A DNA stretch of 64,000 nucleotides from a virus. Below are positions 7,800 through 58,715 of the stretch, piece after piece. The position numbers and the translations under genes were made by a program. Position 1 is the stretch's first letter. Each line of letters opens with the position of its first letter. Location: IMG/VR virus record IMGVR_UViG_3300006141_000001; one strand, written 5' to 3'. The notes beneath the pieces are model-generated. The model was not told the origin of the DNA. It saw nothing but the letters and a program-made list of their open reading frames with translations, and ran no database searches.

Positions 7800-7879
7800 A
7801 GTATACTTTACGACATGTCAAATCTCTTTTCCTCCTTAAAATTTTTCTAATTTACCGATGAATCTCTGGTTTTGTTACC

Positions 7880-9012: not shown

Positions 9013-9114
9013 AGTTTACGGCGATTTTATATATTCATTTCCCATATATGATTTAGGAGTAAATGCGCATTTAACTGGTATACCAAACCTCATCCCTCCT
9101 CTATTTATTCTAAA

Positions 9115-26497: not shown

Positions 26498-26680
26498 TTA
26501 AAAATTATTGTTTTTAATCAAATACAAACCTGAATATCCTCCCAATCCTCCTCCTTGTGTAGTTAACGCACAGGCAATTCCATCAGAATCATACACACGA
26601 TATCCTTGTTTATAATTTCTGGACAAATCCTTCCCATTGTCCAACCACTTATTGCTTTCTATCCCGCCAACAAATATCAA
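26498..26680 (-). CDS. C5-methyltransferase TRD-end-like fragment (TTG start, overlapping the upstream stop). Possibly a remnant or a frameshifted extension.
   Basis: NYKQGYRVYDSDGIACALTTQGGGLGGYSGLYLI resembles the conserved end of C5-MTase target-recognition domains. Confidence 0.3.
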   Translation of the reverse strand: MIFVGGIESNKWLDNGKDLSRNYKQGYRVYDSDGIACALTTQGGGLGGYSGLYLIKNNNF

Positions 26681-28500
26681 TTCATTGGCAGTTTCTGAAA
26701 ATTTTCTACAACTAAACTATCTTTTGGAGCTGTGGTGATGGCATTTGACAATCCATCATTCCGTATTTCTATTTTTTGTTTTATTTCTTCATTTGAATTA
26801 TACCTTCCACGCATAGCAGCACCAACACCATCTAATATAGCTGATTTATGTTCACAACAAATAGACTCATCTACATGTTGTTGAATAAAACTTTCTTGGA
26901 GTTTTTCATCGGTACATATATATGTATCATCATATTGAGCCTTATATAAATGCTCCGCTAATAACGCACAGCAATTTGTGATTATTCCATTCCCTGCTTG
27001 TTTATATAGATGTGTATTCGCAATACCTATTTCTGCAGCTTTATCACAATCTTCGAAAGTCAATCCCATGAGTTTATAACATTCTTTCGGAGTTAATTTA
27101 CGGATTCTAATTGTTTTATATAATCCGTTAATCACGGCATTTGTTGGTTGATTTCCAAATCCTTTATGATCTCTAGCAAGTAATGTACATGCAAAATCTA
27201 TTTCTTTCTCAGATTTAGTCCCTTGATTTGAAACTAAGACCGTAATATCTGGAATTTCAAGAACAGCCGTTCCTTCTTTTTTCCTATTGCTTGATCCCCG
27301 ATTTTCACTTGCAGTTATACAATTTGCATTTTCAATTATCTTAGGGTTGTTGGTTGTTTTATCTATTCCACATATGATTTTAGCATTATTACCATGTCCT
27401 GCCGTATGTGTTGGTGATATTCCTTCTGGTGATACGACTATTCCGTCTTGCGAGGAATTAATCTCTCCAACTTTCAAAATATTATTTTCTGTTAAGTACC
27501 ATCCAGTTTTTGCACCGCCTCCACCGGCCTCGGATTTTAACGTCCTGCTAATATTATCTGAATACACCCTATTTGCATCCCCGTTATAATTATTGATATA
27601 CCCTACTTGATGGAGTTCATTATCAATCCTGAAAATTTTTTCTAAATCAATAGTTTTTAGAAATTTTTTTACTTTTTCGTCTGGTAAATAATATTTTTCA
27701 TCAACTTCTTTTTCTAAAATATCTTTTAGGCGTATACCAGTATCGAATGGTTTAGGAAATACATATTTACCTTTATCAATATCTTTCCTAATAGATATTA
27801 CAAAAACCCTTTCTCTTGATTGCGGGACTCCACAATTTTTCCCGTTGATTATCGAGTAATAAGAATTAAACCCCAACCCATCTAATATTCCTAACAAATC
27901 ATTAAAATTATTGATAAATTTTTTACTCACAAGATTTTTGACATTTTCAAACATTATGTATTTTGGAAGGGAATTACTATCTTTTGCTTTCTTGAGCAAT
28001 CTTATGTTTTCCCATAGCAGGCTACTTCTTGTACCACTATCAGGATTTAACCCTTTCATTTTTCCGCAAACGCTGATATCCGTGCAAGGAAAAGAACATG
28101 TCCATAAATCTGCATATGGCAATTCTTCAATTTTACTTATATCCCCTAAATTATGCGTCAGTTTACAAGCCAACCAATATTTCTCCAGATCCTTCTTCTT
28201 TCTCTTCACTAATTTAAGCCAATCGGACTTCTTGCCTTTCTCAGGATCATAGCCCAAATTTATATCCATTAAGTGCTGAGCCATCTCTTCCTTGGACGGA
28301 TACCCCTTATATGAAATAACCATTCCATCCGTCAAGCCACAATGGATAGCAGCATATGATAACACAGATTCTTTGCTTATTTCTGATGTATTTACTACTT
28401 CAATGTCAAATACTCCTGAGTCCCTAAATCCTCTTGTTTGACATCCTATTCCTGAAAATAATTCGTTTACTGTTAATTTTATTTTCTTATTTTCTTCCAA
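26677..28500 (-). CDS. DNA (cytosine-5)-methyltransferase with repeated TRD-like segments. Possibly multispecific.
   Basis: Motif I FSGIGC, IV SFPCTDIS, VI MFENVKNL and VIII QSRERVFVI. Several target-recognition-domain-end-like stretches (ANRVYSDNISRTLKSEAGGGG, GIVVSPEGISPTHTAGHG). Motif IX is RKLTPKECYKLMGL and motif X is LYKQAGNGIITN, followed by a roughly 100-aa extension. Confidence 0.85.
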   Translation of the reverse strand: MEENKKIKLTVNELFSGIGCQTRGFRDSGVFDIEVVNTSEISKESVLSYAAIHCGLTDGMVISYKGYPSKEEMAQHLMDINLGYDPEKGKKSDWLKLVKRKKKDLEKYWLACKLTHNLGDISKIEELPYADLWTCSFPCTDISVCGKMKGLNPDSGTRSSLLWENIRLLKKAKDSNSLPKYIMFENVKNLVSKKFINNFNDLLGILDGLGFNSYYSIINGKNCGVPQSRERVFVISIRKDIDKGKYVFPKPFDTGIRLKDILEKEVDEKYYLPDEKVKKFLKTIDLEKIFRIDNELHQVGYINNYNGDANRVYSDNISRTLKSEAGGGGAKTGWYLTENNILKVGEINSSQDGIVVSPEGISPTHTAGHGNNAKIICGIDKTTNNPKIIENANCITASENRGSSNRKKEGTAVLEIPDITVLVSNQGTKSEKEIDFACTLLARDHKGFGNQPTNAVINGLYKTIRIRKLTPKECYKLMGLTFEDCDKAAEIGIANTHLYKQAGNGIITNCCALLAEHLYKAQYDDTYICTDEKLQESFIQQHVDESICCEHKSAILDGVGAAMRGRYNSNEEIKQKIEIRNDGLSNAITTAPKDSLVVENFQKLPMN

Positions 28501-32945: not shown

Positions 32946-33641
32946 TTAAAATGGATACAAACTTAATTCAACCGTTTCTCCTGCCGCCGCACAGGCGCAT
33001 TTAACGCCCTCTCCAACGACTTTTTGAACTTCTGACAGACATTCCTCTGGGTTTGCACTATCACCACTTAAATGGCACAATACAATCGTTCTAAGGTCGC
33101 TTGTCATGTTCTCTTTAATGACCTTTTCAATCAGCGTATCAAGCGAACAGTGACCTTTTATCTGGTGGTCGTATTTTGGAGACTCTTTATTCAAATATTC
33201 TTTCTGGTAGTTACATTCTACAATCATATTTGTTAATCTCTTTTTCCTGAACGATACGGGAAGATGTAAATAATCCGTAGCATACAAAATTCTGTGTCCG
33301 TCAACCGTTATGTAAAATCCATAGCAAGGTACTCCGTCATGCGGAACTTTGAACGCCTGTATACTGAAACTGCCATATCTGATTTTGAGAGGGCAAGCCT
33401 TTGTTTCATCATAGGGCTTGAAAACAGGTATTCCCATATTCCCAAAATCATTAACTGCCTTTGAATGGTCGCCGTGCCCGTGGCTGACTAACGCCCCTAC
33501 AACATCAGATACATTAAAGTCAATTCCTTTCAGTATTTCTTTCCTTGCCAAACCCAAATCTAAGAGAAGTATCTTGCCGTCATTGTCATATAAGGCGTAA
33601 CAATTTCCGCTACTACCAGTGCCAATACATCTAACGAACAT
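32946..33641 (-). CDS. metallo-beta-lactamase-fold hydrolase
   Basis: HxHxDH motif ALVSHGHGDHS. Confidence 0.7.
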   Translation of the reverse strand: MFVRCIGTGSSGNCYALYDNDGKILLLDLGLARKEILKGIDFNVSDVVGALVSHGHGDHSKAVNDFGNMGIPVFKPYDETKACPLKIRYGSFSIQAFKVPHDGVPCYGFYITVDGHRILYATDYLHLPVSFRKKRLTNMIVECNYQKEYLNKESPKYDHQIKGHCSLDTLIEKVIKENMTSDLRTIVLCHLSGDSANPEECLSEVQKVVGEGVKCACAAAGETVELSLYPF

Positions 33642-35743: not shown

Positions 35744-36976
35744 TTAATCAGCTTGCTTTATATCGTTCCTTGCCTTTCCGAATGAGTGATAAATAACGTC
35801 AAATTGCTGTTTTAAGTCCTTTACCTCGAAGCTATCAACCGATTCAAATATTCCAGGAACTTCATTGCTGTGTGTTATGGAAAGAGAAATTTTCCAGCCT
35901 TTCCCATTAGAAAAATCTTTTTGTATTCTGTTTAATAATTCAGAAACATTCATTTTCCCATAACGCATTGTCCCTTGATGTTGGTTCGGTACATTTGTCA
36001 AATCTTCCATATCTGGATTGATTTCTTCTTTTCCGCACTCATTATCAATCCTGCCCGCCCCGTGCCTTGTTAGATATGGTCTTGTGACATAACAGACTTC
36101 AACATTTGAATCTGGAAACAATCTTAAAATCATTTCCGCCGGATTCTTTAATCCGGTGTTGCTTGGTGTCAAATGAGGAAAATATTCTTTATTATTCTGG
36201 TCTAACAGAAGTCCTTGCCCTCCCTCGAAAATAATATTCTGGTATTTTTCGAGTGCGTTTGTATCTCCGCAAACCGTTACATGACTTGCCGTAAATTCCA
36301 AATCTGAAAGAAACTGTTCAATCAACCCATCAGCATTTATTATTTCTTCCCATTCTCTACTTGACCGCATTTTCAATTCGTTAAAGCGTTTTGGCAGATA
36401 TGTATGTTTTATGGCTTTGATTGCATCTTTGTTCCGCTTGCCGCAATTCTCCAATAAAACCCATGCCGGATAACCATAGTTTTCCTCATAACGTTTAATG
36501 GTTTCAAAAATCCCCATGCCACAGCTTCCATGTCGCCCATTAGAACGGTTTTCTTCCAAAATCTGATTGATTATCATATCAAATGGTGTTGTTACTCTGC
36601 ACGAAGGATTCAAATATACTGTTGGTTCATATCCTAATTTCTGCAATTCTTCCCATTCTTGTCTGAATAAAATGGGATTTACAATAAACTCCTTTGATAA
36701 ATAAGTATCTGCTCCTGCAAAAACCCCGGAACCAAAATGGTGGAACACATGGTGCGACCCCTCCGCCGTGTCTACCGTATGCCCTCTTTGTGCGCCACCG
36801 TTATGGCACACTACAATACAGTTTTCACCCCGTAGGGCGGCTTGGTGGCAAAAATAATCTGCCACCAAGCCTTTTCCTTCATCACCAAAGTTTGCACCGA
36901 TTACAACTTTGATGTTTTTCTTTACCACGAAATCATCCCTCCTGCATTTTCTTCTGTTCTTGTTTCTGTCGCCCAC
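35744..36976 (-). CDS. adenylosuccinate-synthetase-family enzyme (divergent PurA/PurZ-like)
   Basis: VVIGANFGDEGKGLVAD (GDEGKG P-loop), NGGAQRGHTV, FEGGQGLLLD and YVTRPYLTRHGAGR. These align with the PurA motifs GDEGKGK, GGHNAGHT, FEGAQGTLLD and STRVGAGPF. Confidence 0.65.
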   Translation of the reverse strand: MGDRNKNRRKCRRDDFVVKKNIKVVIGANFGDEGKGLVADYFCHQAALRGENCIVVCHNGGAQRGHTVDTAEGSHHVFHHFGSGVFAGADTYLSKEFIVNPILFRQEWEELQKLGYEPTVYLNPSCRVTTPFDMIINQILEENRSNGRHGSCGMGIFETIKRYEENYGYPAWVLLENCGKRNKDAIKAIKHTYLPKRFNELKMRSSREWEEIINADGLIEQFLSDLEFTASHVTVCGDTNALEKYQNIIFEGGQGLLLDQNNKEYFPHLTPSNTGLKNPAEMILRLFPDSNVEVCYVTRPYLTRHGAGRIDNECGKEEINPDMEDLTNVPNQHQGTMRYGKMNVSELLNRIQKDFSNGKGWKISLSITHSNEVPGIFESVDSFEVKDLKQQFDVIYHSFGKARNDIKQAD

Positions 36977-37872
36977 GTTCCTGTATTGGTTACGATGTCC
37001 ACAATGGCGTTTGCAATATTATCCATGCTTACAGTACGCAAATGATTTTCGTCAAGATATTTTCCGAATGTTTCTTTGATACCAGATTCGTGGTATCTGT
37101 ATGAAGTCTGCGAATCATTAACTGCAAGGTGGTAAATATCAAATTTTCGGCTTGCTTCTTCGTATAAATCCTTTGTTTCTACATCGCCCTGCAAATTATC
37201 ACCTGTCACTCTGGAAAGTGGAGATTTTGGCAAATAAGGATTAAGTGGCTCATCACCCATAGTAATGACAATTCCTTTCTTGCCACGGTTCCAGCAATCC
37301 AATTTTGTATGCCGCAAGCCGAAATACCATGCCACCGTATATGATTCAAAAGAGTTTCCTCCACCGCCTCCCTCGAAGTAAATCTTATCAAGCTGCTCTG
37401 CAATCCTTATATCTGATTCAAATTGTGAAGCCTGTATTGGCGCATTGTCATAGGCTAAATCCCCAATGCCCATAATCATAAATTCCACATCTGCAACCTT
37501 TTCATAAAGTCTTGTCATAACTACATTCAGCTTCTTTGCGACTTCAACTGCCGCGCCACCCATGCTACCCGTTACATCAAGTCCTAAAATAACAGGAATG
37601 GTGTTCGGGTGTTCTGTTGAATCGCAACACTCACGCATTTTATTCTTTGGGTCTAATTCTGGCGCAATCATTCTCTGTTTGAACATATCCTGTGCATGAT
37701 AATCTCCTGAAATAGACCCGTCAGTTCCTACACTCATTTTCTTTGTTGATGAATAACTTCTGAAGCTATCCCTCGTCCAACTTCCGCTTCCCATATTATT
37801 CTTCCTCGCTTTCTTCGGATTCTTCGGCATTTTCTTCTTCGTCTTCGCCGTCAAAATCAAACATTCCCTCAA
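36922..37872 (-). CDS. von Willebrand factor A domain protein
   Basis: MIDAS motif ILGLDVTGSMGG (DxSxS), plus ITMGDEP. Confidence 0.65.
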   Translation of the reverse strand: MRECLILTAKTKKKMPKNPKKARKNNMGSGSWTRDSFRSYSSTKKMSVGTDGSISGDYHAQDMFKQRMIAPELDPKNKMRECCDSTEHPNTIPVILGLDVTGSMGGAAVEVAKKLNVVMTRLYEKVADVEFMIMGIGDLAYDNAPIQASQFESDIRIAEQLDKIYFEGGGGGNSFESYTVAWYFGLRHTKLDCWNRGKKGIVITMGDEPLNPYLPKSPLSRVTGDNLQGDVETKDLYEEASRKFDIYHLAVNDSQTSYRYHESGIKETFGKYLDENHLRTVSMDNIANAIVDIVTNTGTWATETRTEENAGGMISW

Positions 37873-38395
37873 ACATATTTCCCATGCTGCCGCCCATCAT
37901 CATAAATGGAAGCATTGCACTCATTCCGGATTCTCCGCTGTTCTCATTTCCTTTCATCATTTCTGACATCATCATGTACTGCATGATTTTGTTGGTTCCT
38001 TTCTTGCCCTTAATCATGTCGCTGCCGAACATGGAAACGATTTTCCCATAGAAGTACGTATTGCCCATAAATACATGACGCTCTGGCAGAATGTTCTCCA
38101 CTGTTGAATCCTCGTAGTTGATAACCGTTAGCATATTCTTTTTGGACTCAATAACACATTTCGGCTTTCCGGCAACCAAGATAATGTCGCCAACCTCTGC
38201 TTTGTTGGTTGGAATTACAAAGAAAAATTCCTCCCCAATGTTGAATACGAAGCTATCACAGTTCGTCAGTCTTCCAGATTTTACATTGTAGCTTTTGTAG
38301 CCGTTTGCTGTCTTCACGGCAATGCCGCCACTCATTGACAACCTACACATTCCTGGCTGCACTTTCCCAAACATTCCATTTAACATATTAGTCAT
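37796..38395 (-). CDS. hypothetical protein with a Met/Gly-rich and acidic C-terminus
   Basis: C-terminal MMMSEMMKGNENSGESGMSAMLPFMMMGGSMGNMFEGMFDFDGEDEEENAEESEESEEE. Confidence 0.45.
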   Translation of the reverse strand: MTNMLNGMFGKVQPGMCRLSMSGGIAVKTANGYKSYNVKSGRLTNCDSFVFNIGEEFFFVIPTNKAEVGDIILVAGKPKCVIESKKNMLTVINYEDSTVENILPERHVFMGNTYFYGKIVSMFGSDMIKGKKGTNKIMQYMMMSEMMKGNENSGESGMSAMLPFMMMGGSMGNMFEGMFDFDGEDEEENAEESEESEEE

Positions 38396-39181: not shown

Positions 39182-39484
39182 TCAATCCTCTCTTTCTTCA
39201 TAAATCTGCAATGTTCCGTCTGCGTTGTAGAGTGGGGTAATGCCTGTTCTGTAGCCAGATGTATTGACAAAATATTTTACTTTCGTGTCATTTGCATAGA
39301 CAATTCTATATGTTCCATAACTTCCATCTCCCCACTCGGAAATTGTAGTAAAATACCCATTTCCGAAATCACCGCTTGTATTACTTTCTGTCTGCCCTGT
39401 CGCCTCTTGATATGTAGTGCCGCACCCAACCAGGCAAATCACCATCACAACCGCCAATGCCACAATTAAAATTCGTTTCTTCAT
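39182..39484 (-). CDS. putative lipoprotein
   Basis: Signal peptide with a lipobox (MKKRILIVALAVVMVICLVGC). Confidence 0.5.
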   Translation of the reverse strand: MKKRILIVALAVVMVICLVGCGTTYQEATGQTESNTSGDFGNGYFTTISEWGDGSYGTYRIVYANDTKVKYFVNTSGYRTGITPLYNADGTLQIYEERED

Positions 39485-39789
39485 TTTAAAACCCTCCTAT
39501 TCCATAGCTTAATAACACCAGAACTTGATGAAGAATAAGTCCCGTTAATTGATGCAGTATTCATAAGACATTTAGTGCATTGAATAACAACCCCCTCATC
39601 CCCTCCTATCCTTAGTTCTTGTAAGACATTAATTTCTGCTACTCCGCCACAAAATAGACAGTTCTTTATTTCTGAATTTAACTTATAAACTCTATCCCCT
39701 AATGGGACTCTAAGGTTATCTAAATCCCATTCATTTTTTTCAATTATTTTCCTTGGAATCCAGAACTGCTGACGTAATCCATAATCCAT
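39481..39789 (-). CDS. Lar-family-like zinc-ribbon protein (putative restriction alleviation)
   Basis: CLFCGGVAEI...VIQCTKCLMNT resembles the Lar motif PCPFCGG...C..C. Confidence 0.45.
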   Translation of the reverse strand: MDYGLRQQFWIPRKIIEKNEWDLDNLRVPLGDRVYKLNSEIKNCLFCGGVAEINVLQELRIGGDEGVVIQCTKCLMNTASINGTYSSSSSGVIKLWNRRVLK

Positions 39790-40046: not shown

Positions 40047-40676
40047 TCACTCAGCACATAAATTGGCAAATTTGATTTTTCCAAAATAAGTTAATATCTT
40101 TTCTACTTTCAACCCAACTTCTACATCCCTTATATTGGTTATAATATCTGTGATATTTGTTTCTGAAAGACTCATGACTGTATCATAATTCCCAGAATAC
40201 TTTCCATCTTCAACAATCGGTTCGCTCAATCCATAATAAAAATAAACATCTTCTTTCTCAGCATCAATACTAATTTTACTTAATTCTTTTTTTGAAATTC
40301 CATTATATACAAGCCAAGCATCAAGGGCTTTATTTGCCAGAATATATTCCCCTTGCTTATAAAAATATGGTGACAAAAACTTGTTTTTTAATATTCTTCC
40401 TACGGATTCATCACCTATTTTCACTTTATCAGAGTATAATACAATGTTTTCTCTACCAGATGAGAATCCAATAATCACCTCGCTCCAATACCCTTTTGAC
40501 TCTATAATGGTTTTTATATCTTTTTTATTTGTTATATAACATTTTGAATTGGTAATATCCTTGCATTCAGAAAAAACCCTGGCAAAAATATCATCCTGTT
40601 CTTTATATGTCATATAAAAATCTTTCCCCAACTTATCTAAAATGTCTTTTTCTTTATAGCATCTGTATTGTGTCAT
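40047..40676 (-). CDS. hypothetical protein
   Basis: ORF track. Confidence 0.45.
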   Translation of the reverse strand: MTQYRCYKEKDILDKLGKDFYMTYKEQDDIFARVFSECKDITNSKCYITNKKDIKTIIESKGYWSEVIIGFSSGRENIVLYSDKVKIGDESVGRILKNKFLSPYFYKQGEYILANKALDAWLVYNGISKKELSKISIDAEKEDVYFYYGLSEPIVEDGKYSGNYDTVMSLSETNITDIITNIRDVEVGLKVEKILTYFGKIKFANLCAE

Positions 40677-41200
40677 GGCTTGTCAACTCCTTCCAATATT
40701 TCATTTAGAGTCTTTGGCATAAATCCAATTATATCCACTCCCACATTATAAGCATTCTTAATTTTTGATATATATTGATTAGTGCTATTCTCAAAATTGT
40801 TGTGGATATGTCCATAAAAATGCAATGTATTTCTATAATACCCATCCCACTCCACCATAGGATAATGACAGCATATAATCCGTTTTCCACTGTCATTGAC
40901 CGTTTTTATAAAAGTAACTGATGAGAAATACTTTTCATACTTCTTATTGCTTAATAATTTATTGTCATGGTTCCCTATAATCAAATGTTTCTTCCCTTTC
41001 AATTTTTTAAGGTATGAAATAGGGTCTTGACTTTTATATGCAAAATCTCCTAAGATATAAATATTATCACTGTCTGTTACTCTATTATTCCAATTTTCGA
41101 TAATTGCTTTATCCATTTCTTTTATTGATTCAAATGGTCTTTTTGATAATTTAAGGATATTTTCATGTCCAAAATGAGTATCTGCAATATAATAATTCAT
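40673..41200 (-). CDS. calcineurin-like metallophosphoesterase
   Basis: IADTHFGH, ILGDFAY, GNHDN and GHIH motifs. Confidence 0.75.
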   Translation of the reverse strand: MNYYIADTHFGHENILKLSKRPFESIKEMDKAIIENWNNRVTDSDNIYILGDFAYKSQDPISYLKKLKGKKHLIIGNHDNKLLSNKKYEKYFSSVTFIKTVNDSGKRIICCHYPMVEWDGYYRNTLHFYGHIHNNFENSTNQYISKIKNAYNVGVDIIGFMPKTLNEILEGVDKP

Positions 41201-41246
41201 ACAATCTCCAATCTAATATAAAATTACAATCGTCCTGTCTCTTTTA

Positions 41247-42032
41247 TTAAGAAACAAGACCAACTCCAATGCCAGGATTAAAACTTGGCATAAGCTGTAA
41301 TTTGAATAAGTTTTTCTTATGCATTGTATCAATTTTCTTTTTTACTTCTTGGTCTTCAATTTCACCTGTACGGATGTATCTATCCAACACCTCATAAGTA
41401 AAGCCAAAATTCTCTTCATCTGTCTTTCCGCAAAGCCCATCAGATGGTGTTTTATCAATTAATTTGTCTGGTAACCCCAACACTCTCCCAATCTGTTTAA
41501 TTTCTGTAACCGTAAGGTTAGAAAGCGGACTAAAATCTCCAACTGAATCCCCATACCTCGTACTATATCCTATCCAATCCTCTGACAAATTACATGTATT
41601 TGCCACCCTACCATCCATACTTTGGCTTACAGCATATAAAGTTGCCATACGGATACGAGCAGGAAGATTAATTTCTGCCTGTTCTGTCAAACTATCATTA
41701 TCATCAAAAGCATTGAGAATATCATACTTTAAAGTATTCAAAGTATGTCCAATCGGAACTAAAGCAAAATTAATTCCAAGATACCTGCATAATAAATAAC
41801 TACAGTCAATATCTGTCTGAAGTCCATTTGGCATAAGAACGCCAAACACTCTATCTTTACCAAGTGCCTCTGCACATAGGGCAGCTACTACAGAACTATC
41901 TTTTCCACCTGAAATTCCAATTACTGCTTTACAACCCTTGCCATTATCCTCAAAGCATCCTTTAATCCAATTTACGCATTTATTCTTTACTTCTACTGCG
42001 TTAAAATCATCTATCATTGTCCTAACCTCCAA
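41247..42032 (-). CDS. nadE: NH3-dependent NAD+ synthetase
   Basis: PP-loop VIGISGGKDSSVVAAL. Length and architecture match NadE. Confidence 0.75.
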   Translation of the reverse strand: MEVRTMIDDFNAVEVKNKCVNWIKGCFEDNGKGCKAVIGISGGKDSSVVAALCAEALGKDRVFGVLMPNGLQTDIDCSYLLCRYLGINFALVPIGHTLNTLKYDILNAFDDNDSLTEQAEINLPARIRMATLYAVSQSMDGRVANTCNLSEDWIGYSTRYGDSVGDFSPLSNLTVTEIKQIGRVLGLPDKLIDKTPSDGLCGKTDEENFGFTYEVLDRYIRTGEIEDQEVKKKIDTMHKKNLFKLQLMPSFNPGIGVGLVS

Positions 42033-42228
42033 TCATCAAACATATAGATTTGCTTCTGGCAATATTGAAATATCCATTTTTTTCCTGTAGGCTTACAAGT
42101 TACAATGTCTAATTCAATGCATATAAAAAATATTGGGATTCAATTGTAATCAAATAATATTTATTCCAAATACAATTCTTCTCATTCGATAATAAAGCAC
42201 AATTCTTTGTCCATTACATCACCTCAAT

Positions 42229-42855
42229 TCAAAATCCACTTTTGCGATAAACGTTATCTGTGTTTTCCAGATACTCAAAAACACATTCTGGGACATAATC
42301 CTTAACCGAGCCTAACTGGTTATTGACATACGCCTCCCTTATCTGTGTCGATGATACTTCTTGATATGCCCCTTCAATATATCTAAAATTACCATTATAT
42401 TGCATTAATGATTCATGTAATTTCCCATTGTCATTATTCCTAGTAATCACCAAAAACCTATTATCCCTAACTACCTCTTCTGCTTTATACCATCTGTGGA
42501 TTTCACAAAGTTTGTCTGCCCCAATGCATATAATAGGATCCATTTTTCTATAATACTGGATTGTATTATATGTTTTGCCATCTACTGTCCCATTTATCTC
42601 AATGTTCGATACATGAAAACCGAATTTTTTCACTGCCTCATGTAATAGCAGGAATCTCTTATCTCCATCCAATACCATCCCATCTCCGTACTTTTTCCAG
42701 TCTTTTAAAAATTTATCATTAGATGGAACAAAAACAATATTAGCTGATGGATATACCATCTTGCAACAAATGCCCATATTTATATGGGCATTTGTCACAG
42801 GATTAAAAGCACCAAAAATCAATACTGACTTATTCATACTGCAATCTCCAGTCAA
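42229..42855 (-). CDS. nadD: nicotinate/nicotinamide mononucleotide adenylyltransferase (NadD/NMNAT family)
   Basis: LIFGAFNPVTNAH ((H/T)xGH motif), ICIGADKL, VSSTQIREAY (ISSTxIR) and VPECVFEYL. Confidence 0.65.
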   Translation of the reverse strand: MTGDCSMNKSVLIFGAFNPVTNAHINMGICCKMVYPSANIVFVPSNDKFLKDWKKYGDGMVLDGDKRFLLLHEAVKKFGFHVSNIEINGTVDGKTYNTIQYYRKMDPIICIGADKLCEIHRWYKAEEVVRDNRFLVITRNNDNGKLHESLMQYNGNFRYIEGAYQEVSSTQIREAYVNNQLGSVKDYVPECVFEYLENTDNVYRKSGF

Positions 42856-44035
42856 TACATCTCTGCAAATAGTTTACATAATCGAGGTTCTTGCAAATTC
42901 CTTTCCCAACATCATCTGAAATCTTTGCCACATCTTGTCCATTACATTTTGTAACTTTCATGACAATATTCAACGGCTCCACATCCGTATCATTAGAAAT
43001 ATAAGTCCCTATCCCAAACGCAATCTTTGCCCTTTCTTTAAAATAATGATAGATTTTATCTGCTTTTTCAAAGTTTAAACTGTCACTAAAAAGCAATGTC
43101 TTACTCCTTGGGTCTATCCCTAGATCTTTATAATGGTTAATTATTTTTTCTCCCCATTCATACGGACTGCCACTATCATGTCTCACACCACTGAATAAAG
43201 TGGCATAAGTAAGGTTAAAATCTTTCAAAAAACAATCTGTCCCAATGGTATCTGTAAGAGCCGTCCCATTAAGGATCCCATATTCTCTTACCCAAGCTTC
43301 CATCGCATACCAATTCGAATAAGCAGGATTATGCTTATGGTTCCCTTGGCCTACACACATAATAAACTCATGCGCTTGGGTTCCTGTGGGCATTAAATTA
43401 TACTTCATTGCCAAATAAACGTTAGAAGTCCCAACAAAAACTGAGCAGCAATATTTGATTCCAGATAACTTTTGCACTGCCATTTCTTGAGCTTCGGCAG
43501 AAAGCCTGCGCCTAAGTCCAAATTCACTAAAAGAAGAGAGATAATACCTTCCTTGATATATTCCTAGCCATTCCGCTTTCTCCTCCAATTTTTCTGTAAA
43601 CACTTCCATCAAATGTCTATAATTATGTGCCATTTTAAAATACACTTCATTTACTATTGCTAAAACCGGGATCTCATACATACTTGTGTTAAGCCATGTA
43701 CCTTTAGTTTCAATCACCAGACCACATTTTGAATTAACTGTTATATCAAAATCCTCAAAACGTGGCTGCCATAAACGCAAAAAATCCACATAATTTCCCT
43801 TAATCCAACGAATATTTTTTAAATATTGAAGCTCCTGTTCAGTAAACTTAAGGCTACAATACAATTTAATTTGGCGCTTAATCTCTTGAACCATTTCAGG
43901 CGTAAAAAATATATCTTTATTACGGCATTTAAACGTCCAAGTAGTTTTATAGTCCGAAAATTGATGAAGAATGACTTGCCCCATACTAAATTTGTATAAA
44001 TCATTCTCCAATAAACTATTAATAATCCTATCCAT
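42830..44035 (-). CDS. pncB: nicotinate phosphoribosyltransferase
   Basis: LLENDLYKFSMGQ (compare E. coli PncB LLDTDAYKLHMQQ), GTQAHE, GVRHDSGSPYEWGEK and LNIVMKVTKCNGQDVAKISD. Confidence 0.8.
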   Translation of the reverse strand: MDRIINSLLENDLYKFSMGQVILHQFSDYKTTWTFKCRNKDIFFTPEMVQEIKRQIKLYCSLKFTEQELQYLKNIRWIKGNYVDFLRLWQPRFEDFDITVNSKCGLVIETKGTWLNTSMYEIPVLAIVNEVYFKMAHNYRHLMEVFTEKLEEKAEWLGIYQGRYYLSSFSEFGLRRRLSAEAQEMAVQKLSGIKYCCSVFVGTSNVYLAMKYNLMPTGTQAHEFIMCVGQGNHKHNPAYSNWYAMEAWVREYGILNGTALTDTIGTDCFLKDFNLTYATLFSGVRHDSGSPYEWGEKIINHYKDLGIDPRSKTLLFSDSLNFEKADKIYHYFKERAKIAFGIGTYISNDTDVEPLNIVMKVTKCNGQDVAKISDDVGKGICKNLDYVNYLQRCIDWRLQYE

Positions 44036-44038
44036 ATT

Positions 44039-44581
44039 TCATTCTCCAACTTTCTTTAATCTATTAAAGGCGTTGTTGTCTTCATTCATTATTTTTAACA
44101 TCCATGTATTGATAAAATTTTTGTCATTTACATGCATAGCCATAGGTTTACTCATCCTATTTTTCCACCACATATATTCTTTTTCATATGTAAAATCCTT
44201 ACCGTAATATGCCCTTCCTGCCCCAAGAAAATCGCATAACATTTCTTTTTTATACTTCAATGGCATCTCAATGGCTATTCCGCCATCATCAAAATTATCC
44301 TGCCAGTACTCATAGTGATGCTTATTCCTCCCCTTATGATGCATCCACGCCTTTGACCAGCCATTCTCTTTTTTACAAGCATCAATAGGGCTGGAATTTC
44401 CTTGATAATATTTCACACCCTCCCAAAATTCTACAGAAGAAAATTTTGACATATCATGGAATAGTCCTTGTAAAGGGATTCCCATCTTCCAACAATAGTA
44501 AAATACCCAATATTTATGGACGCAGACCTTCTTAAAATGCTTAAAAATATTCACAATTTTAATCATCCTAATTCTTCCCAC
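44039..44581 (-). CDS. HD-like metal-dependent hydrolase of unknown function, embedded in the NAD module
   Basis: Ordered H / HD / H..H / D pattern: CVHKYW, LFHDMSKF, WMHHKGRNKHHYEYW and DDGGIAIE. Confidence 0.4.
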   Translation of the reverse strand: MGRIRMIKIVNIFKHFKKVCVHKYWVFYYCWKMGIPLQGLFHDMSKFSSVEFWEGVKYYQGNSSPIDACKKENGWSKAWMHHKGRNKHHYEYWQDNFDDGGIAIEMPLKYKKEMLCDFLGAGRAYYGKDFTYEKEYMWWKNRMSKPMAMHVNDKNFINTWMLKIMNEDNNAFNRLKKVGE

Positions 44582-45117
44582 ACCGTTTTTTTATTTACAT
44601 GGATTTGACACATTTTCATAGTCAGCAATGCTGCTTTATGCGCATCCGGAGAAGTGCCTGCACAACAATCCACATCTACAGAAATTTCAATATCTGGGAA
44701 ATTTGCCTTCAACAGCAAAGCGTTTGATACAACACATATGTCCGTACATAATCCAACAATTTCAATTTCTAACCTCTCTTTTCTATCCAAGATCCTTCTT
44801 ATTTCATTTATAAGGCGGGTTGATCCAAACGTTCTTTTCTCAATAATTTTATAATCCTTTCCCACTAATACATCACGGACATCCTTATTCAAAACCCATC
44901 CGTTAGTCATTCTAATACAATGGGCAACTGGTAAATGCTTCCCTTCAAAAGTTTCTAAATAATTGTCATCATGTGTATCCAATGTTGCAAAAATCTTCCC
45001 ATCAAACCCTTTTATTTTATCTACTACATTTCCAACAATGTCTTTTGCTTCCTTTGTTCCGAGTGAGCCGTCAATAAAATCATTTTGCATATCAACCACA
45101 ACCAAAATACTACTCAT
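44563..45117 (-). CDS. pncA: isochorismatase-fold nicotinamidase (PncA-like)
   Basis: N-terminal LVVVDMQNDF signature and Cys in VGLCTDICV. Confidence 0.65.
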   Translation of the reverse strand: MSSILVVVDMQNDFIDGSLGTKEAKDIVGNVVDKIKGFDGKIFATLDTHDDNYLETFEGKHLPVAHCIRMTNGWVLNKDVRDVLVGKDYKIIEKRTFGSTRLINEIRRILDRKERLEIEIVGLCTDICVVSNALLLKANFPDIEISVDVDCCAGTSPDAHKAALLTMKMCQIHVNKKTVWEELG

Positions 45118-45200: not shown

Positions 45201-46220
45201 TTAATCTTCCTCATATGGGCATTCTGGCAATGCTCCGCTCAATATTGCATTTCCACAAGTGATGCGCCCCAAGTCCTCATACTCGCTTGCGATAAACACA
45301 AGCACATCAAATCCGGCTTTCTTCAAATCCTCTTCAATGTGTCGGTATGGATACATGGTTGTATAATCTCCGCTTGTTTCAATACCGTTTTTAAGGGCGG
45401 TATGTGTTTTGTGCATAGGTGTCAACTTGACAAGGAATTTTTCGGGATTGAATAAATCTCTCATCTTCTCTGCATTGACCTCATAATCAGCAACCGCAAA
45501 ATTCAATGTAATTTTTCTTCCCTTTGGCATTTCAAGGCTTCTTCCAATATTTGAAATTTCCTGCAATGTCAGAGAATTTCCGCTAAACATATCCTCTCTT
45601 TCGCTGTCAGAAGTGGAATTGATGGAGAATTGCAATCCGGCATCCCCCGAAAAATCTTTGTTCTTAATCTCCATCCACACTTCAAGATAATCAGCTAATT
45701 TTGTGTTGTTCTTCGGTAACATGGTGGAAACAACGGGATGAATAAGGCTGTCACCGATATATGGTTTTAATTCTTCTCTCATATTCTTTGTAAACTCCAA
45801 AACCGCCCAATTCCATGTAGGCTCTCCCATTCTCGCATAATGCACATTCAAGCGGTTTGTATGAGTGATTTCTGGGTGCAATGATAAGCCGGTTACAATC
45901 TGACTTTTCAAATCATCGTATGTAGCGTTTATGCCTTTTCCGACTTTCGGCACATCACAGAATTTGCAGTTCATGGAGCAACCGTACTGTGTGCTGATTG
46001 TGATTACCCACTTTTCGGAAAGCGGTAACATTTGCTGATGTTCTACATGGTCTATCTCCCTTGTCAAGCCCATGAAATCAGCCTTTAAGTTCGCTTCTTT
46101 CCCATAGTCTCCGATTGACAGACATTCAAGTTTTCCCTTGTCACCCTCAACAATCATAATGTTTCCAGTTGGTACTTTTATATTTCTTAAAATTTTTATT
46201 TCCAAATCCTCCAATCTCAT
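45201..46220 (-). CDS. radical SAM enzyme of the RlmN/Cfr-like family (RNA C-methylating type)
   Basis: ISTQYGCSMNCKFCDV (CxxxCxxC; compare RlmN SSQVGCALECKFCST), ARMGEP (MGMGEP) and C-terminal RITCGNAIL (compare DIDAACGQL). Confidence 0.6.
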   Translation of the reverse strand: MRLEDLEIKILRNIKVPTGNIMIVEGDKGKLECLSIGDYGKEANLKADFMGLTREIDHVEHQQMLPLSEKWVITISTQYGCSMNCKFCDVPKVGKGINATYDDLKSQIVTGLSLHPEITHTNRLNVHYARMGEPTWNWAVLEFTKNMREELKPYIGDSLIHPVVSTMLPKNNTKLADYLEVWMEIKNKDFSGDAGLQFSINSTSDSEREDMFSGNSLTLQEISNIGRSLEMPKGRKITLNFAVADYEVNAEKMRDLFNPEKFLVKLTPMHKTHTALKNGIETSGDYTTMYPYRHIEEDLKKAGFDVLVFIASEYEDLGRITCGNAILSGALPECPYEED

Positions 46221-49416: not shown

Positions 49417-50268
49417 TTATTCTTCCAAAGCTTTTATAAGCTGCTCAATATATTCCCTCCCTTCTCCCTTAAAGACAGGAATGTCTTTATCAATAATCCA
49501 AGAACTGATGTTTTGACCCAAATTACGCAACATACATCTCTCTGTCACACTAACCTTCTCTAACATAATTTCATTTTTAACTACACACGTGCCTCTTTTT
49601 TGGTATGTAGGAAAATCATTCCAATTTATTCCTTTTTGGATCATTAACATGTCCTGGATATCATTATTGGTTTTATTCTGTAATTCTTTATGGCTAAAAT
49701 TAGCACGTCCCACCATTTGGACGCTATTTCTGGACGCATCTAACTGCCTCCAATATATATAATTTGTAACTTCCTCTTTGGGAATATTGAATACTCTAGC
49801 ATCAAACATTGCCCCCTTATCCTTTGCTTCATAATATTTTTTTACTAAATACCTATATTCGTGTTCTTCGATATTTTTTGGTTCGAAATTATCAAACTCA
49901 AAAACGTTTTGTTCGAAAATGCGATTAAAAGCTAAAGTCGCCATACTTGCAATAATACTACACATTTTTTGAACTTCATAATCAAACCATGAAGAAGAAT
50001 TAAGCCTTTTATAATCTACCAATACTAAAGAAATCTCATCTGACTGAGTATACCCAAGAACACATCCCTGGACATTCTCGCAAAGATATCTTGTAGTTTT
50101 CTGTATTGTATCAATCAGGACATCATCAAACGGCCTTCTAAAATTTCTGGCAAACGTATGGAACGCCCTCCCATCAACCCTGCATATGACTGGACAACGC
50201 CTCATAAGTTTTGTTTTTGGAATCCGCTCATAAAAAGTTTTCATCCTATCGCCAAGATTATCTCTCAT
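49417..50268 (-). CDS. Thg1-like protein (tRNA 3'-5' nucleotidyltransferase, TLP)
   Basis: N-terminal GDRMKTFYER...VICRVDGRAFHTF matches the Thg1-family signature (KFEYV...RVDGxxFHxF). Length is Thg1-like. Confidence 0.65.
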   Translation of the reverse strand: MRDNLGDRMKTFYERIPKTKLMRRCPVICRVDGRAFHTFARNFRRPFDDVLIDTIQKTTRYLCENVQGCVLGYTQSDEISLVLVDYKRLNSSSWFDYEVQKMCSIIASMATLAFNRIFEQNVFEFDNFEPKNIEEHEYRYLVKKYYEAKDKGAMFDARVFNIPKEEVTNYIYWRQLDASRNSVQMVGRANFSHKELQNKTNNDIQDMLMIQKGINWNDFPTYQKRGTCVVKNEIMLEKVSVTERCMLRNLGQNISSWIIDKDIPVFKGEGREYIEQLIKALEE

Positions 50269-57314: not shown

Positions 57315-58715
57315 TTAAGCAGCATTTTCTTGTATCTTACAATATTTAATAAAATCTTCTTTCATATGAAGATAATTCTTCTTCTGGTCTTTAAAATATG
57401 TATTATTACTTTTCGCATATTGTTCCATCCATGTATCCAAATTTTTATCTGCTTGATGCGAGTATACAACCATTGCTAATAATGATGGACGGTTTTCATC
57501 TTGCAATAATTTTGAATCACATTTTATTGTCCTATCTTCAAGTTCATCTAAGACATCGTTGTAATAATCAATATCATCTCTGATTGTTTTCTTATCAATC
57601 CCTGTATTTTCTATTAAAAATTCATTAATAGAAATAGTATCCTTTCCATCTTTTTCGTCACAAGGTTCTGTGTCAATCCCTAAAAATTCTCTCATCATTC
57701 CTTCCAACATGTCTAATTTAGCAATAATAACCGTCTTATCCTTTGTTGATTTATCTTTATCTATTTCATCAAATAAAAGATTATTTTTATTCTTTCTACA
57801 ATTCCTTAAATTATTTTTAAACTCTAACAGGAACTGCTCAAACTTTATATCTTCTATTCCATAACGAGTGAATCTGTCAAACAGTGTTAAAAATATAAAA
57901 GAATCTTTACTATTAAAAATAATTTTTGTTTCTTCAGAAATAATTTCTTCCAATCTATGTAAGTTGTTTTCAACTTTTTCAAAATCCTCATCTTTTGCAC
58001 AGTTATTCAAATATTTACATGCTAATTTTGCATTTTTCTTCCAATCATCTAAATAATCAGAACACATGATAGTTTCAGCAATTGTTCTTTCAATAACGCC
58101 TTTTATTTTTTCTATTTCCTTAAAATCGCTTTTTTCTATAAAAAATTTACTATTTGTTATTCTACGAACATTTGGTGCAAAATTATATAAATATGTAAAT
58201 GCTTTCTGATTACTATTCATTGAAATATGGTTGTTATATATTTTTACATATTTAGACAACCTTTTCCTGTCGCAGTTTTCATGAATGACAGTCTCTATTT
58301 GGTATTCATCGAATTTTTTCTTTAACTCATCTGGAAGTTTATCATATGTTTTATTTTTTATATCAAACGTCCCATCCTCCCAATGGATTTTTCCGTCTTC
58401 ACTTATTATTTTCTTCTTATAAACTATCTTAGAATCATCTATCGTAGATGTGATTTTATGGTTTCCATATCTAAATTTATCTAATGCCTTTGTCCTACAT
58501 CCGCCATCTACAATATGTAATTGTGAATCATTTTCTTCTCCAAGTATAATTGGCGGGATATAATCATCTGTCAAAACCGTATAAATTAATTCATTGATCT
58601 GCTCATTCTTCCACGCAAAATCCCTCTGTGTGTCTGCATCATTACATATATCCCCATCTTTTGTCTTTGCCAAATACATATCTAATGTATAAGTCTGTTT
58701 TCTTGGTCTCGCCAT
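57315..58715 (-). CDS. DUF262 (ParB/Srx-fold, GmrSD or DndB-like N-domain) protein
   Basis: TQRDFAW (QR..VW motif) and IVDGGCRTKAL (DGQQR-like). Confidence 0.55.
   Translation of the reverse strand: MARPRKQTYTLDMYLAKTKDGDICNDADTQRDFAWKNEQINELIYTVLTDDYIPPIILGEENDSQLHIVDGGCRTKALDKFRYGNHKITSTIDDSKIVYKKKIISEDGKIHWEDGTFDIKNKTYDKLPDELKKKFDEYQIETVIHENCDRKRLSKYVKIYNNHISMNSNQKAFTYLYNFAPNVRRITNSKFFIEKSDFKEIEKIKGVIERTIAETIMCSDYLDDWKKNAKLACKYLNNCAKDEDFEKVENNLHRLEEIISEETKIIFNSKDSFIFLTLFDRFTRYGIEDIKFEQFLLEFKNNLRNCRKNKNNLLFDEIDKDKSTKDKTVIIAKLDMLEGMMREFLGIDTEPCDEKDGKDTISINEFLIENTGIDKKTIRDDIDYYNDVLDELEDRTIKCDSKLLQDENRPSLLAMVVYSHQADKNLDTWMEQYAKSNNTYFKDQKKNYLHMKEDFIKYCKIQENAA

Follow-up and report, generated by a model that had tools for sequence, protein, structure and literature searches.

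A probable operon for deamidating NAD+ salvage in a large Firmicutes-type gut phage, with a possible role in counter-defence

Introduction

Complete salvage or Preiss-Handler pathways have been reported in 174 of 668 gut jumbo phages, in which NAD synthesis is proposed to complement host pathways and to feed NAD-consuming phage enzymes (Li et al., 2024, Microbiome, PMC11662467). The 'NAD-jumbo phages' of that study, such as Kuafu_71, carry pncB, nadD and nadE in a cluster; phage pncA is mentioned, and counter-defence or a 'survival strategy' is suggested on in silico evidence only (Li et al., 2024). Isolated jumbo phages, e.g. Atu_ph07, likewise have genes annotated as PncB.

Three phage NAD+ pathways, NARP1 to NARP3, have been demonstrated experimentally, and rebuilding NAD+ defeats NAD-depleting defences. 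NARP1 (Adps and Namat) reuses ADP-ribose via ADPR-PP, and its operon can gain an accessory hydrolase (Macro-phosphatase, Adpp). NARP2 (Nampt and Nmnat; Osterman et al., 2024) follows an amidated route, in two steps via NMN, whereas NARP3 (Sci Adv 2026, PMC13464706) combines a PnuC-like transporter with a NadR-like enzyme, importing nicotinamide riboside, which is then phosphorylated and adenylylated. Our literature search found no paper testing a deamidating phage NAD+ route. In bacteria, pyridine nucleotide cycle operons are chromosomal and serve housekeeping or regulated salvage, and in Gram-positives the HD-domain diphosphatase YqeK is fused to or clustered with NadD, with roles in proofreading of wrong dinucleotides and Ap4A hydrolysis (PMC9426524).

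The present study characterised a five-gene cassette in a 64,000-nucleotide stretch of viral DNA (hereafter the window; IMG/VR record IMGVR_UViG_3300006141_000001) and compared it with these systems.

Results

Gene content and comparison with described systems

Minus-strand positions 41247-45117 of the window hold five closely packed genes, encoding a PncA-type nicotinamidase, a DUF5662 protein, PncB, a NadD-type adenylyltransferase and an NH3-dependent NadE (Table 1). An earlier note on this DNA had proposed such a gene set: the five open reading frames are present, every motif it quoted is found in the translations, and its four enzyme assignments are correct, the Pfam families Isochorismatase, NAPRTase_N + NAPRTase, CTP_transf_like and NAD_synthase all being matched and the catalytic residues being intact when aligned to solved enzymes. 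The gene that it called HD-like gave no HD family match, its Pfam match being DUF5662 instead.

Table 1. Features of the cassette, listed in the order of transcription.
Feature	Position	Strand	Length	Evidence
PncA-type nicotinamidase, isochorismatase-like cysteine hydrolase	44563..45117	-	184 aa	Pfam Isochorismatase 7e-24
DUF5662 protein	44039..44566 (ATG) or to 44581 (GTG)	-	175 aa from ATG; 180 aa from GTG	Pfam DUF5662 4e-30
PncB, nicotinate phosphoribosyltransferase, E. coli/Pseudomonas type	42830..44035	-	401 aa	Pfam NAPRTase_N + NAPRTase
NadD-type NaMN/NMN adenylyltransferase	42229..42855	-	202 aa from ATG at 42837; 208 aa from TTG at 42855	Pfam CTP_transf_like 1.7e-9
nadD-nadE spacer	42018..42228	-	~211 nt	No feature identified
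NadE, NH3-dependent NAD+ synthetase	41247..42032	-	256 aa from ATG at 42017	Pfam NAD_synthase 8.6e-51
Weak terminator-like hairpin over nadE stop	41232..41260	-		Pattern scan only

With ATG starts taken from gene calls on identical contigs, PncA and DUF5662 overlap by 4 nt, DUF5662 and PncB are 3 nt apart, and PncB and NadD overlap by 8 nt; NadD and NadE are separated by 211 nt, unlike in related cassettes, where the two genes almost abut. This spacer, in which a GGAGG precedes the nadE ATG by 8 nt, gave no Rfam match at E ≤ 1 and yielded nothing convincing in a promoter/terminator scan. The hairpin over the nadE stop is a possible operon end, a weak call because the number of terminator-like sites found by pattern scan in the region did not exceed shuffled expectation.

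Like the NAD-jumbo phages, the locus belongs to a gut phage with a contig of more than 200 kb and combines clustered pncB-nadD-nadE with a complete NAD+ route, so that the wording 'apparently undescribed' in the earlier note was overstated (Li et al., 2024). In that study, however, nicotinate is the entry substrate, a fixed pncA and DUF5662 are not discussed, and Bacteroidota are named as hosts of the Kuafu clade; the flanking genes here resemble Firmicutes myoviruses instead. Unlike in those jumbo phages, the cassette described here is also found, often, on contigs of ~150 kb, under the jumbo threshold, and on a different element, beside RtcB and Rep3. With NARP1 it shares a phage operon that would rebuild NAD+ from NADase products, but it has no PRPS-like or Nampt-family gene, and its accessory hydrolase is DUF5662, not a Macro domain. 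Like NARP2, it is phage-encoded and would convert nicotinamide, PRPP and ATP into NAD+, although in four deamidated steps, with nicotinate, NaMN and NaAD as intermediates and a PncB equivalog as phosphoribosyltransferase in place of Nampt; NARP2 has been shown to counter NAD-depleting defences, as the present cassette may do. NARP3 is likewise an NAD+-restoring module drawn from canonical bacterial salvage enzymes, but the cassette lacks both transporter and NadR. That NARP1 and NARP2 use other enzymes, as had been stated, thus holds for NARP3 too. The P. aeruginosa operon pncA-pncB1-nadE (PA4918-4920) offers the same enzymes and chemistry; the cassette differs from such bacterial operons in its viral clade and in DUF5662.

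Enzymes of the predicted route

The closest solved relative of the PncA-type protein is the P. horikoshii pyrazinamidase/nicotinamidase (1im5/1ilw, 9e-9), with D9 and C128 aligning to the catalytic Asp10 and Cys133, and D47, H49 and H66 to the Zn ligands Asp52, His54 and His71. K94 is the lysine conserved in the family, and these six residues are at least 95% conserved among 77 unique viral homologs; against the E. coli-type PncA equivalog of NCBIfam the protein scores 25.5 bits, far below the cut-off of 174. PncB scores 409 bits against TIGR01514 (cut-off 270) and 475 bits against NF003704 (cut-off 379), matches 1yir (P. aeruginosa PncB2, 42% identity; 5e-87) and 3os4 (3e-76) in the PDB, and carries H222 within the conserved GT(M/Q)AHE motif, here GTQAHE (at least 95% conserved, n = 86 viral homologs). 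The top NCBIfam models for the NadD-type protein are all NadD, TIGR00482 giving 85 bits, under its cut-off of 112, and S. aureus NadD (2h29, 4.7e-8) is its closest PDB relative. In its two motifs, T21, N22, A23 and H24 of GAFNPVTNAH, where HxGH takes the variant form T-x-x-H, and S168, S169 and R173 of SSTQIR are conserved (n = 45 homologs). Since this protein and PncA fall below the equivalog cut-offs, their substrate specificity is assigned from motifs and context. NadE reaches 177 bits against TIGR00552 (cut-off 64) and 2e-62 against phrog_11189 'NAD synthetase'; its PP-loop S41-G-G-x-D-S46 is conserved, it has no glutaminase domain, and its best PDB matches are all single-domain NH3-dependent enzymes (2e18, 3.7e-32). 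Overall, comparison with 45-86 unique viral homologs of every enzyme gave at least 95% conservation at the catalytic and metal-binding positions.

As had been proposed, the route is complete on paper. PncA would hydrolyse nicotinamide to nicotinate and NH3, PncB would join nicotinate to PRPP, with ATP, to give NaMN, the NadD-type enzyme would adenylylate NaMN with ATP to NaAD, and NadE would amidate NaAD with ATP to NAD+, possibly reusing the ammonia freed by PncA. The cassette very probably encodes a working nicotinamide-to-NAD+ pathway.

DUF5662 is predicted to be an enzyme that binds metal and has an all-alpha fold distantly resembling HD proteins; an HD-type motif pattern is present, and the closest structural matches are cyclic-dinucleotide phosphodiesterases, HD-GYP and PgpH. 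It may be an accessory nucleotide (di)phosphohydrolase acting with the adenylyltransferase step, for which YqeK with NadD and the Nudix ADP-ribose pyrophosphatase with NadM would serve as models. New here is its tie to NAD adenylyltransferases through a shared operon, fusion to a NadD-like domain and neighbourhood (an NMNAT-type gene in locus L007), which recalls NadD-YqeK; as in NadD-YqeK and NadM-Nudix/KVP40 NatV, a putative metal-dependent nucleotide diphosphatase is coupled to an NAD adenylyltransferase by operon and fusion. In Atu_ph07, a Nudix ADPR pyrophosphatase adjoins a cytidyltransferase near PncB.

Recurrence across viral loci

Among the 80 closest IMG/VR DUF5662 loci, PncA and DUF5662 stand in the same order in 68 and all five genes do so in 62, while PncA, PncB and NadE accompany an adenylyltransferase, again in this order, in most of the 35 loci retrieved through PncB; given this recurrence, the genes do not lie together merely by chance. 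Gut phages commonly carry the module. PncA, PncB and NadE are constant, and the adenylyltransferase slot is filled by a non-orthologous NadD-, NadM- or NadR-type enzyme, the last replacing NadD in some related cassettes (e.g. L022). The conserved order and the interchangeable slot indicate that the pathway is under selection as a unit. Viral PncB proteins form their own clade, with 49-75% identity among them. The fixed membership of PncA is new here and sets the start of the route at nicotinamide.

Genomic setting and alternative explanations

The element carrying the cassette is a large phage related to Firmicutes myoviruses, and a 243 kb contig carries the exact DUF5662 protein. In this Firmicutes-type gut phage the cassette is an inserted accessory module; the equivalent site in TsarBomba holds no NAD genes. 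It is very improbable that the genes belong to host core metabolism or come from mis-binning of a bacterial contig, in agreement with the phage-borne status claimed before, even though bacterial pncA-pncB-nadE operons exist, DUF5662 is common in Clostridia genomes, and in one 'phage' record (Acinetobacter phage MD-2021a) PncB lies amid bacterial housekeeping genes. All open reading frames of at least 100 aa in the window lie on one strand and belong mostly to PHROG-only families, a flanking DUF8224 protein shares 62% identity with proteins of Bacillus Herelleviridae, the window has no rRNA genes and one tRNA only, and close syntenic relatives occur on IMG/VR contigs of 100-416 kb. Moreover, bacterial DUF5662 proteins are only 37-57% identical and lack linkage to NAD genes, the distant homologs in gut Clostridia genomes not adjoining such genes in 78 of 80 cases.

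The cassette could be an ordinary auxiliary metabolic gene set that raises NAD+ supply for replication (e.g. for an NAD-dependent ligase, ADP-ribosylation or redox demand) or complements a host without nicotinamide/nicotinate salvage. This accords with the complementation argued for jumbo phages (Li et al., 2024), with single PncB genes annotated as metabolic in unrelated isolated phages, with the up-regulation of host pncA-pncB1-nadE during PA5oct infection, which suggests a general NAD demand, and with the PADLOC search, which found nothing, the cassette having no defence-specific component. Nevertheless, we consider it unlikely as the main explanation: with PncA fixed, the route starts at nicotinamide, the direct NADase product, and not at nicotinate from the environment, the cassette is an accessory module that moves from one element to another, it sits among anti-restriction and repair genes (a Lar-like protein, a C5 methylase, a PurZ-like enzyme, an RNA-repair set and an MBL hydrolase), and no NAD-dependent ligase or ADP-ribosyltransferase was found in the window. 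The two explanations do not differ in chemistry, and both may hold. It is less likely still that PncA and DUF5662 are a separate two-gene unit merely co-located with PncB, NadD and NadE, either removing nicotinamide for its own sake or acting as an amidase and an HD-GYP-like phosphodiesterase that hydrolyse an NAD-derived or cyclic-nucleotide immune signal. The structural matches of DUF5662 and the low equivalog score of PncA favour such a unit, as do the occurrence of the pair without PncB, NadD and NadE in locus L010 (protein cluster of 1573 members) and, in Phass-1, the PncA-like gene that precedes a NARP1-like Adps/Namat pair.

Discussion

Taken as a whole, the locus is probably a functional, accessory phage operon for deamidating NAD+ salvage with a counter-defence role. 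The narrower claim, with counter-defence as the main benefit, is more tentative, at somewhat less than even likelihood; NAD+-depleting defences release nicotinamide, exactly the start of a route in which PncA is fixed. Several considerations weigh against the reading as a whole. PncA and the NadD-type protein fall short of their equivalog cut-offs, and the more distant DUF5662 homologs of gut Clostridia mostly lack NAD genes as neighbours (78 of 80). Each NAD+ made by the route consumes PRPP and as many as three ATP, fresh NAD+ would face the same NADase, and no reuse of ADP-ribose, which NADases also release, is obvious. A different role is also conceivable for the phage PncA-like protein, which occurs with DUF5662 alone in L010 and which, as a nicotinamidase, would compete with the NARP1-like pair of Phass-1 for nicotinamide. 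Within the window, the only NAD-consuming or NADase-related partner identified is a truncated ADP-ribosylglycohydrolase (25054-25539), noted before as a remnant and comprising the C-terminal half only (Pfam positions 127-275), with no N-terminal open reading frame upstream; the SLOG-family protein also noted earlier is SLOG (YAcAr) at 24491-24907.

On the favoured reading as a salvage operon, the cassette would raise or restore NAD+ in the infected cell, and the likeliest selective benefit to the phage would be resistance to NAD+-depleting defences.

Architecture and active sites of the cassette

Five consecutive ORFs occupy positions 41247-45117 on the minus strand, and every motif quoted for them in the earlier note was found in their translations. 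Profile searches bore out the assignment of four of the products to PncA, PncB, NadD and NadE, with matches to the Isochorismatase, NAPRT, CTP_transf-like and NAD synthetase families, whereas the gene described as "HD-like" encodes a DUF5662 protein with no HD-clan match. With gene starts placed at the ATGs used by gene calls on identical contigs, the PncA and DUF5662 genes overlap by 4 nt, 3 nt separate DUF5662 from PncB, PncB and NadD overlap by 8 nt, and 211 nt lie between NadD and NadE; from PncA to NadD the genes show the tight translational packing of an operon. The non-coding nadD-nadE spacer is peculiar to this phage, the two genes abutting or lying less than about 50 nt apart in related cassettes. 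It contained no Rfam family (NAD riboswitches included) at E ≤ 1, no ORF, and no convincing promoter or terminator. Two flanking genes were rejected as cassette members by tblastn: the metallophosphoesterase gene co-occurs only on contigs of the same phage, and the radical-SAM-like gene accompanies the cassette in one other locus, L063. PADLOC returned zero matches for all cassette proteins.

PncB was matched at equivalog level, both NCBIfam models being above cut-off. In the PncA-type protein, an Isochorismatase-fold domain (PF00857, 7.3e-24) spans residues 3-170, and the score is below the curated equivalog cut-off (NF008623, 25.5 bits vs 174); judged by its sequence, the protein, at 184 aa, is a short and divergent PncA that resembles archaeal/Firmicute forms. 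The NadD-type protein is likewise under the equivalog cut-offs (TIGR00482, 84.9 bits vs 112.45; NF000840, 81.5 vs 150). NadE consists of a single synthetase domain (256-261 aa, PF02540 alone), without the glutaminase (CN-hydrolase) domain, and its closest solved relatives in a PDB search are NH3-dependent enzymes.

Features of the window and of related loci
Feature	Sequence	Coordinates	Strand	Basis or remark
PncA-type gene	Window	44563-45117	minus	Isochorismatase family, 7e-24 (profile search)
DUF5662 gene	Window	44039-44581	minus	Pfam DUF5662 4e-30, no HD family match
PncB gene	Window	42830-44035	minus	TIGR01514 409 bits (cut-off 270); NF003704 475 (cut-off 379)
NadD-type gene	Window	42229-42855	minus	Cytidylyltransferase-like; best NCBIfam models all NadD
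nadD-nadE spacer	Window	42018-42228
NadE gene	Window	41247-42032	minus	TIGR00552 177 bits (cut-off 64); phrog_11189 "NAD synthetase"
Metallophosphoesterase gene	Window	40673-41200
Radical-SAM-like gene	Window	45201-46220
PAPS-reductase-like protein	Window	9115-10161
SPASM-domain protein	Window	12532-13608
Kinase/HD (Pnkp-like), RNA repair	Window	17874-18788	minus
RNA ligase, RNA repair	Window	18781-19797	minus
RlaP nucleotidyltransferase, RNA repair	Window	22770-23795	minus
Thg1-like tRNA-His guanylyltransferase, RNA repair	Window	49417-50268	minus
SLOG (YAcAr) protein	Window	24491-24907	minus	Immediately downstream of ADP-ribosylglycohydrolase remnant
ADP-ribosylglycohydrolase, C-terminal half only	Window	25054-25539	minus	PF03747 positions 127-275
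C5 cytosine methylase	Window	26677-28500		607 aa, large insertion
Metallo-beta-lactamase-fold hydrolase	Window	32946-33641	minus	phrog_392, 1e-52
PurZ-like adenylosuccinate synthetase	Window	35744-36976	minus	phrog_1211 "2-aminooxy adenylosuccinate synthetase" 1.8e-66; Pfam Adenylsucc_synt
Lar-like restriction alleviation protein	Window	39481-39789
GmrSD_N-domain protein	Window	57315-58715	minus	466 aa; weak PADLOC NsnA match, 1e-8
tRNA-Met	Window	60591-60664		Only tRNA in window
Five-gene cassette	L008 and L009	5444-9138		DUF5662, PncB 70-73% identity
Adenylyltransferase, NadD type	L008	7745-8374
Adenylyltransferase, NadM/archaeal type	L017	4797-5396
Adenylyltransferase, NadM/archaeal type	L029	7176-7733
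Adenylyltransferase, NadR type	L022	5467-5979
Isochorismatase-DUF5662 pair	L010	5490-6555		Overlapping genes
Phage Phass-1 region	L208 (OQ749652)	5992-9094		Genetic code 15

Alignment to solved enzymes indicated that the active sites are intact. The catalytic and metal residues listed below are at least 95% conserved across the unique homologs from the fetched viral loci (PncA 77, PncB 86, NadD 45, NadE 69; identity floors of 40%, 49%, 28% and 25%, respectively), so the objection that catalytic residues might be missing does not hold. In PncA, D9 and C128 lie opposite the catalytic Asp10 and Cys133 of P. horikoshii PncA (1im5), and D47, H49 and H66 opposite its Zn ligands Asp52, His54 and His71; an Asp/His/His metal site sets nicotinamidases apart from other isochorismatase-like hydrolases. 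K94 is the family-invariant lysine and pairs with the "DK"-motif lysine of the cysteine hydrolase 6kua, while the pairwise alignment with 1im5 shifts the catalytic-lysine loop and puts K87 opposite Lys94. The predicted Asp-Lys-Cys triad is present as D9, K94 and C128. PncB shares 42% identity with P. aeruginosa PncB2 (1yir, 5e-87), and H222 in its GTQAHE motif aligns to the GTMAHE/GTQAHE motifs of 1yir and 3os4; in Salmonella PncB the histidine of this GT(x)AHE motif is the site of ATP-driven phosphorylation (phosphohistidine). The NadD-type protein carries GAFNPVTNAH, a T-x-A-H variant of HxGH, and VSSTQIR (SSTxxR), both of which align with the nearest solved relative, S. aureus NadD (2h29). 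That it would prefer NaMN to NMN is suggested solely by the presence of NadE in the cassette, an enzyme that requires NaAD. The PP-loop SGGxDS of NadE corresponds to S41-G-G-K-D-S46.

Phage setting

All ORFs of at least 100 aa lie on the minus strand, GC content is about 33% throughout the 64 kb, and most proteins match phage protein families alone (e.g., phrog_1735, 907 bits; phrog_24834, 451 bits; phrog_33734). The same PncB sequence recurs on 14 metagenome contigs, with the gene order unchanged; the exact DUF5662 protein was found on a 243,188-bp contig and the exact PncB on one of the 0.2-1 Mb size class. A flanking DUF8224 protein (692 aa) shares about 62% identity with proteins from Bacillus Herelleviridae and from a Clostridioides phage, and at the equivalent site of Bacillus phage TsarBomba the NAD genes are absent. 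The strand bias, phage families, large contigs, DUF8224 protein and TsarBomba site thus show the cassette to be an insertion of accessory genes in a large phage of Firmicutes type; the view of the region as a mobile element rather than host core metabolism is upheld. A DNA-level search of GenBank phages retrieved only fragmentary human-faecal phage contigs.

The recognisable functions of the window are typical of large-phage accessory regions. The PurZ-like gene hints that 2-aminoadenine may replace adenine in the phage DNA; the scanned neighbours (including 36922-37872 and 37796-38395) yielded no recognisable DatZ- or MazZ-like partner. The ADP-ribosylglycohydrolase remnant and SLOG-family protein noticed earlier were both recovered, the former as a gene that looks truncated, since its N-terminal half has no ORF in 25540-25930. 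The RNA-repair set could counter anticodon-nuclease defences; another RNA ligase, RtcB, follows the NAD cassette in L008 and L009. The metallo-beta-lactamase-fold hydrolase, which has a faint Anti-Pycsar Apyc1 match on identical contigs (precomputed Pfam table), could degrade cyclic nucleotides. The GmrSD_N protein is a defence-type nuclease domain carried by the phage.

Distribution and variants of the cassette

Scanning IMG/VR with PncB yielded 35 viral contigs, with identities of 49-75% and, in several cases, lengths of 200-416 kb; PncA and NadE adjoin PncB in most of them, and by an iterated profile search the majority also have an adenylyltransferase. With the DUF5662 alignment as query, more than 537 viral contigs were obtained, the 80 best of which were analysed. 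The exact order PncA>DUF5662>PncB>NadD>NadE is present in 62 of these 80, and at least PncA>DUF5662 in 68; because the sample is skewed to close relatives and one metagenome supplied many of the contigs, these counts do not represent independent events. Many of the 80 are about 150-160 kb long, under the "jumbo" threshold.

In L008 and L009 the same five genes are found on a different element, where RtcB and a Rep3-type replication gene come after them and PcfJ, DUF932, a PIF1 helicase and IS605 OrfB lie upstream. This element looks like a plasmid or phage-plasmid, and the module therefore moves between mobile elements. In the adenylyltransferase slot non-orthologous enzymes of NadD, NadM/archaeal and NadR type swap in, while PncA, PncB and NadE stay throughout, which is the pattern expected from selection on the pathway as a unit.

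The gut phage Phass-1 carries a PncA-like "nicotinamidase" (41.5% identical), and the gene for it overlaps with the beginning of a divergent PRPS-like gene. A Nampt-family gene comes next, which gives the Adps/Namat layout of NARP1 with a PncA-like gene added. A plain nicotinamidase role is difficult to square with this arrangement, since such an enzyme would compete for nicotinamide. A PncB match in L207 (CAKLQH020000008.1, "Acinetobacter phage MD-2021a") was discounted: it is surrounded by the bacterial housekeeping genes serB, dtd, psd and phoR/phoB, and the record looks like bacterial sequence filed as phage.

The DUF5662 protein

DUF5662 is an unusually conserved family with 2,663 word-indexed matches and 3,754 representatives at 50% identity, and is mentioned in no paper found in the searchable literature. 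Direct assignment to the HD families by sequence failed, as a Pfam search of 48 members at E ≤ 10 matched only PF18907. The family profile gave zero matches in the PDB, single-sequence phmmer retrieved nothing other than DUF5662, and Foldseek found no significant match in the PDB or BFVD. A candidate H...HD...D metal-ligand pattern is discernible in the invariant H10/H17, H37-D38, H76/H77, H83/H84 and D112.

Three ties, independent of one another, connect DUF5662 with NAD adenylyltransferases: its operon position, a natural fusion (P0179) to a NadD-like domain that carries the motifs GSLNPITTGH and SSTIAR, and a NadM-type NMNAT a few genes away in locus L007. Other homologs are fused to a 2-thiouracil desulfurase (P0205 and P0221), an RNA-repair HAD (P0180), a nucleoside deoxyribosyltransferase-like domain (P0214) and DMP19 (P0198); DMP19 apart, all fusion partners are nucleotide or nucleoside enzymes. 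Distant members in gut Clostridia genomes (37-57% identity) stand alone, and no recurrent neighbour emerged from 80 bacterial genome loci, alanyl-tRNA synthetase or asparagine synthase being near DUF5662 in a few lineages and uninformative. The isochorismatase-DUF5662 pair of L010 lies on a 91 kb phage-like contig without PncB, NadD or NadE, and its DUF5662 protein stands for a cluster of 1573 sequences.

In function, the closest parallel is YqeK, an HD diphosphatase that occurs as a fusion with NadD or in a gene cluster with it; YqeK hydrolyses mis-made NaAD analogues and Ap4A (PMC9426524). Another parallel is offered by NadM-type enzymes, to which a Nudix ADP-ribose pyrophosphatase is coupled; in phage Atu_ph07 a Nudix gene of this kind lies beside a cytidyltransferase, near PncB. 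On account of the adenylyltransferase ties and these analogies, we infer that DUF5662 may be a nucleotide (di)phosphohydrolase aiding the adenylylation step or disposing of ADP-ribose.

Relation to known systems

The published NAD+ reconstitution pathways use other enzymes, as had been stated, and the components of none of them form the cassette. Unlike NARP1 (Adps and Namat), it has no PRPS-like or Nampt-family protein, its phosphoribosyltransferase being a PncB equivalog; unlike NARP2 (Nampt and Nmnat), it has PncB, not Nampt, and its adenylyltransferase is present but together with NadE. The PnuC-like transporter and NadR-like enzyme of NARP3 are absent from the cassette and its immediate flanks.

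To call the cassette "apparently undescribed" was too strong. In the text of their article, Li et al. (2024; PMC11662467) identified in silico complete salvage or Preiss-Handler pathways in 174 of 668 gut jumbo phages, explicitly reported clustered pncB-nadD-nadE (e.g., Kuafu_71), touched briefly on phage pncA, and raised counter-defence as a possible role on the same in silico basis. By the definitions in that text, the cassette shows the pncB, nadD, nadE clustering of a "NAD-jumbo phage", and the contig with the exact DUF5662 protein exceeds the >200 kb limit. PncB is annotated in isolated phages too. Within the searchable literature, including the main text of Li et al. (2024), we found no account of PncA as a constant first gene, by which nicotinamide becomes the starting substrate, or of the conserved DUF5662 gene and its adenylyltransferase links. 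The interchangeable adenylyltransferase slot and the spread beyond jumbo phages are likewise absent from the searchable literature, which holds no experiment on any deamidating phage route.

Possible role of the cassette

By established biochemistry, PncA, PncB, NadD and NadE lead from nicotinamide to NAD+ at the expense of PRPP and ATP; ammonia released by PncA would be a substrate for the NH3-dependent NadE. Since NAD+-depleting defences release nicotinamide, and rebuilding NAD+ was shown to defeat such defences for NARP1, NARP2 and NARP3, a counter-defence role is plausible by analogy, and the accessory, anti-restriction-rich setting fits it. The main rival is the general NAD+ supply function proposed by Li et al. 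(2024), and several observations weigh against counter-defence: the ATP and PRPP cost of the deamidating route is high, ADP-ribose is left without obvious recycling, the PncA-DUF5662 pair occurs without the other cassette genes in L010, and the PncA-like gene of Phass-1 lies directly upstream of a NARP1-like pair, where a nicotinamidase would compete for nicotinamide.

A more specific form of the counter-defence reading, which we put forward tentatively and consider rather unlikely in full, is that the cassette constitutes a fourth, deamidating reconstitution pathway ("NARP4") against Thoeris/DSR/SIR2-type depletion, with DUF5662 as its dedicated new HD-like diphosphatase. DUF5662 could then split ADP-ribose into AMP and ribose-5-phosphate, so that both NADase products would reach PncB via PRPP; alternatively, it might proofread the adenylyltransferase products.

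Significance

NAD+ depletion is among the commonest bacterial antiviral strategies. Three phage pathways for rebuilding NAD+ have been demonstrated since 2024, none of which includes a deamidating route. Here, the classical PncA-PncB-NadD-NadE route forms an operon that is both fixed and mobile and that occurs on hundreds of viral contigs from the gut, among them those of sub-jumbo phages and of a plasmid-like element. Should this operon protect against NADase defences, it would add to the known counter-defences and offer a further tool for the engineering of therapeutic phages directed at Firmicutes-rich gut communities. For DUF5662, a large and highly conserved family shared by gut Clostridia and their phages, a first functional lead comes from its close links by operon, fusion and neighbourhood.
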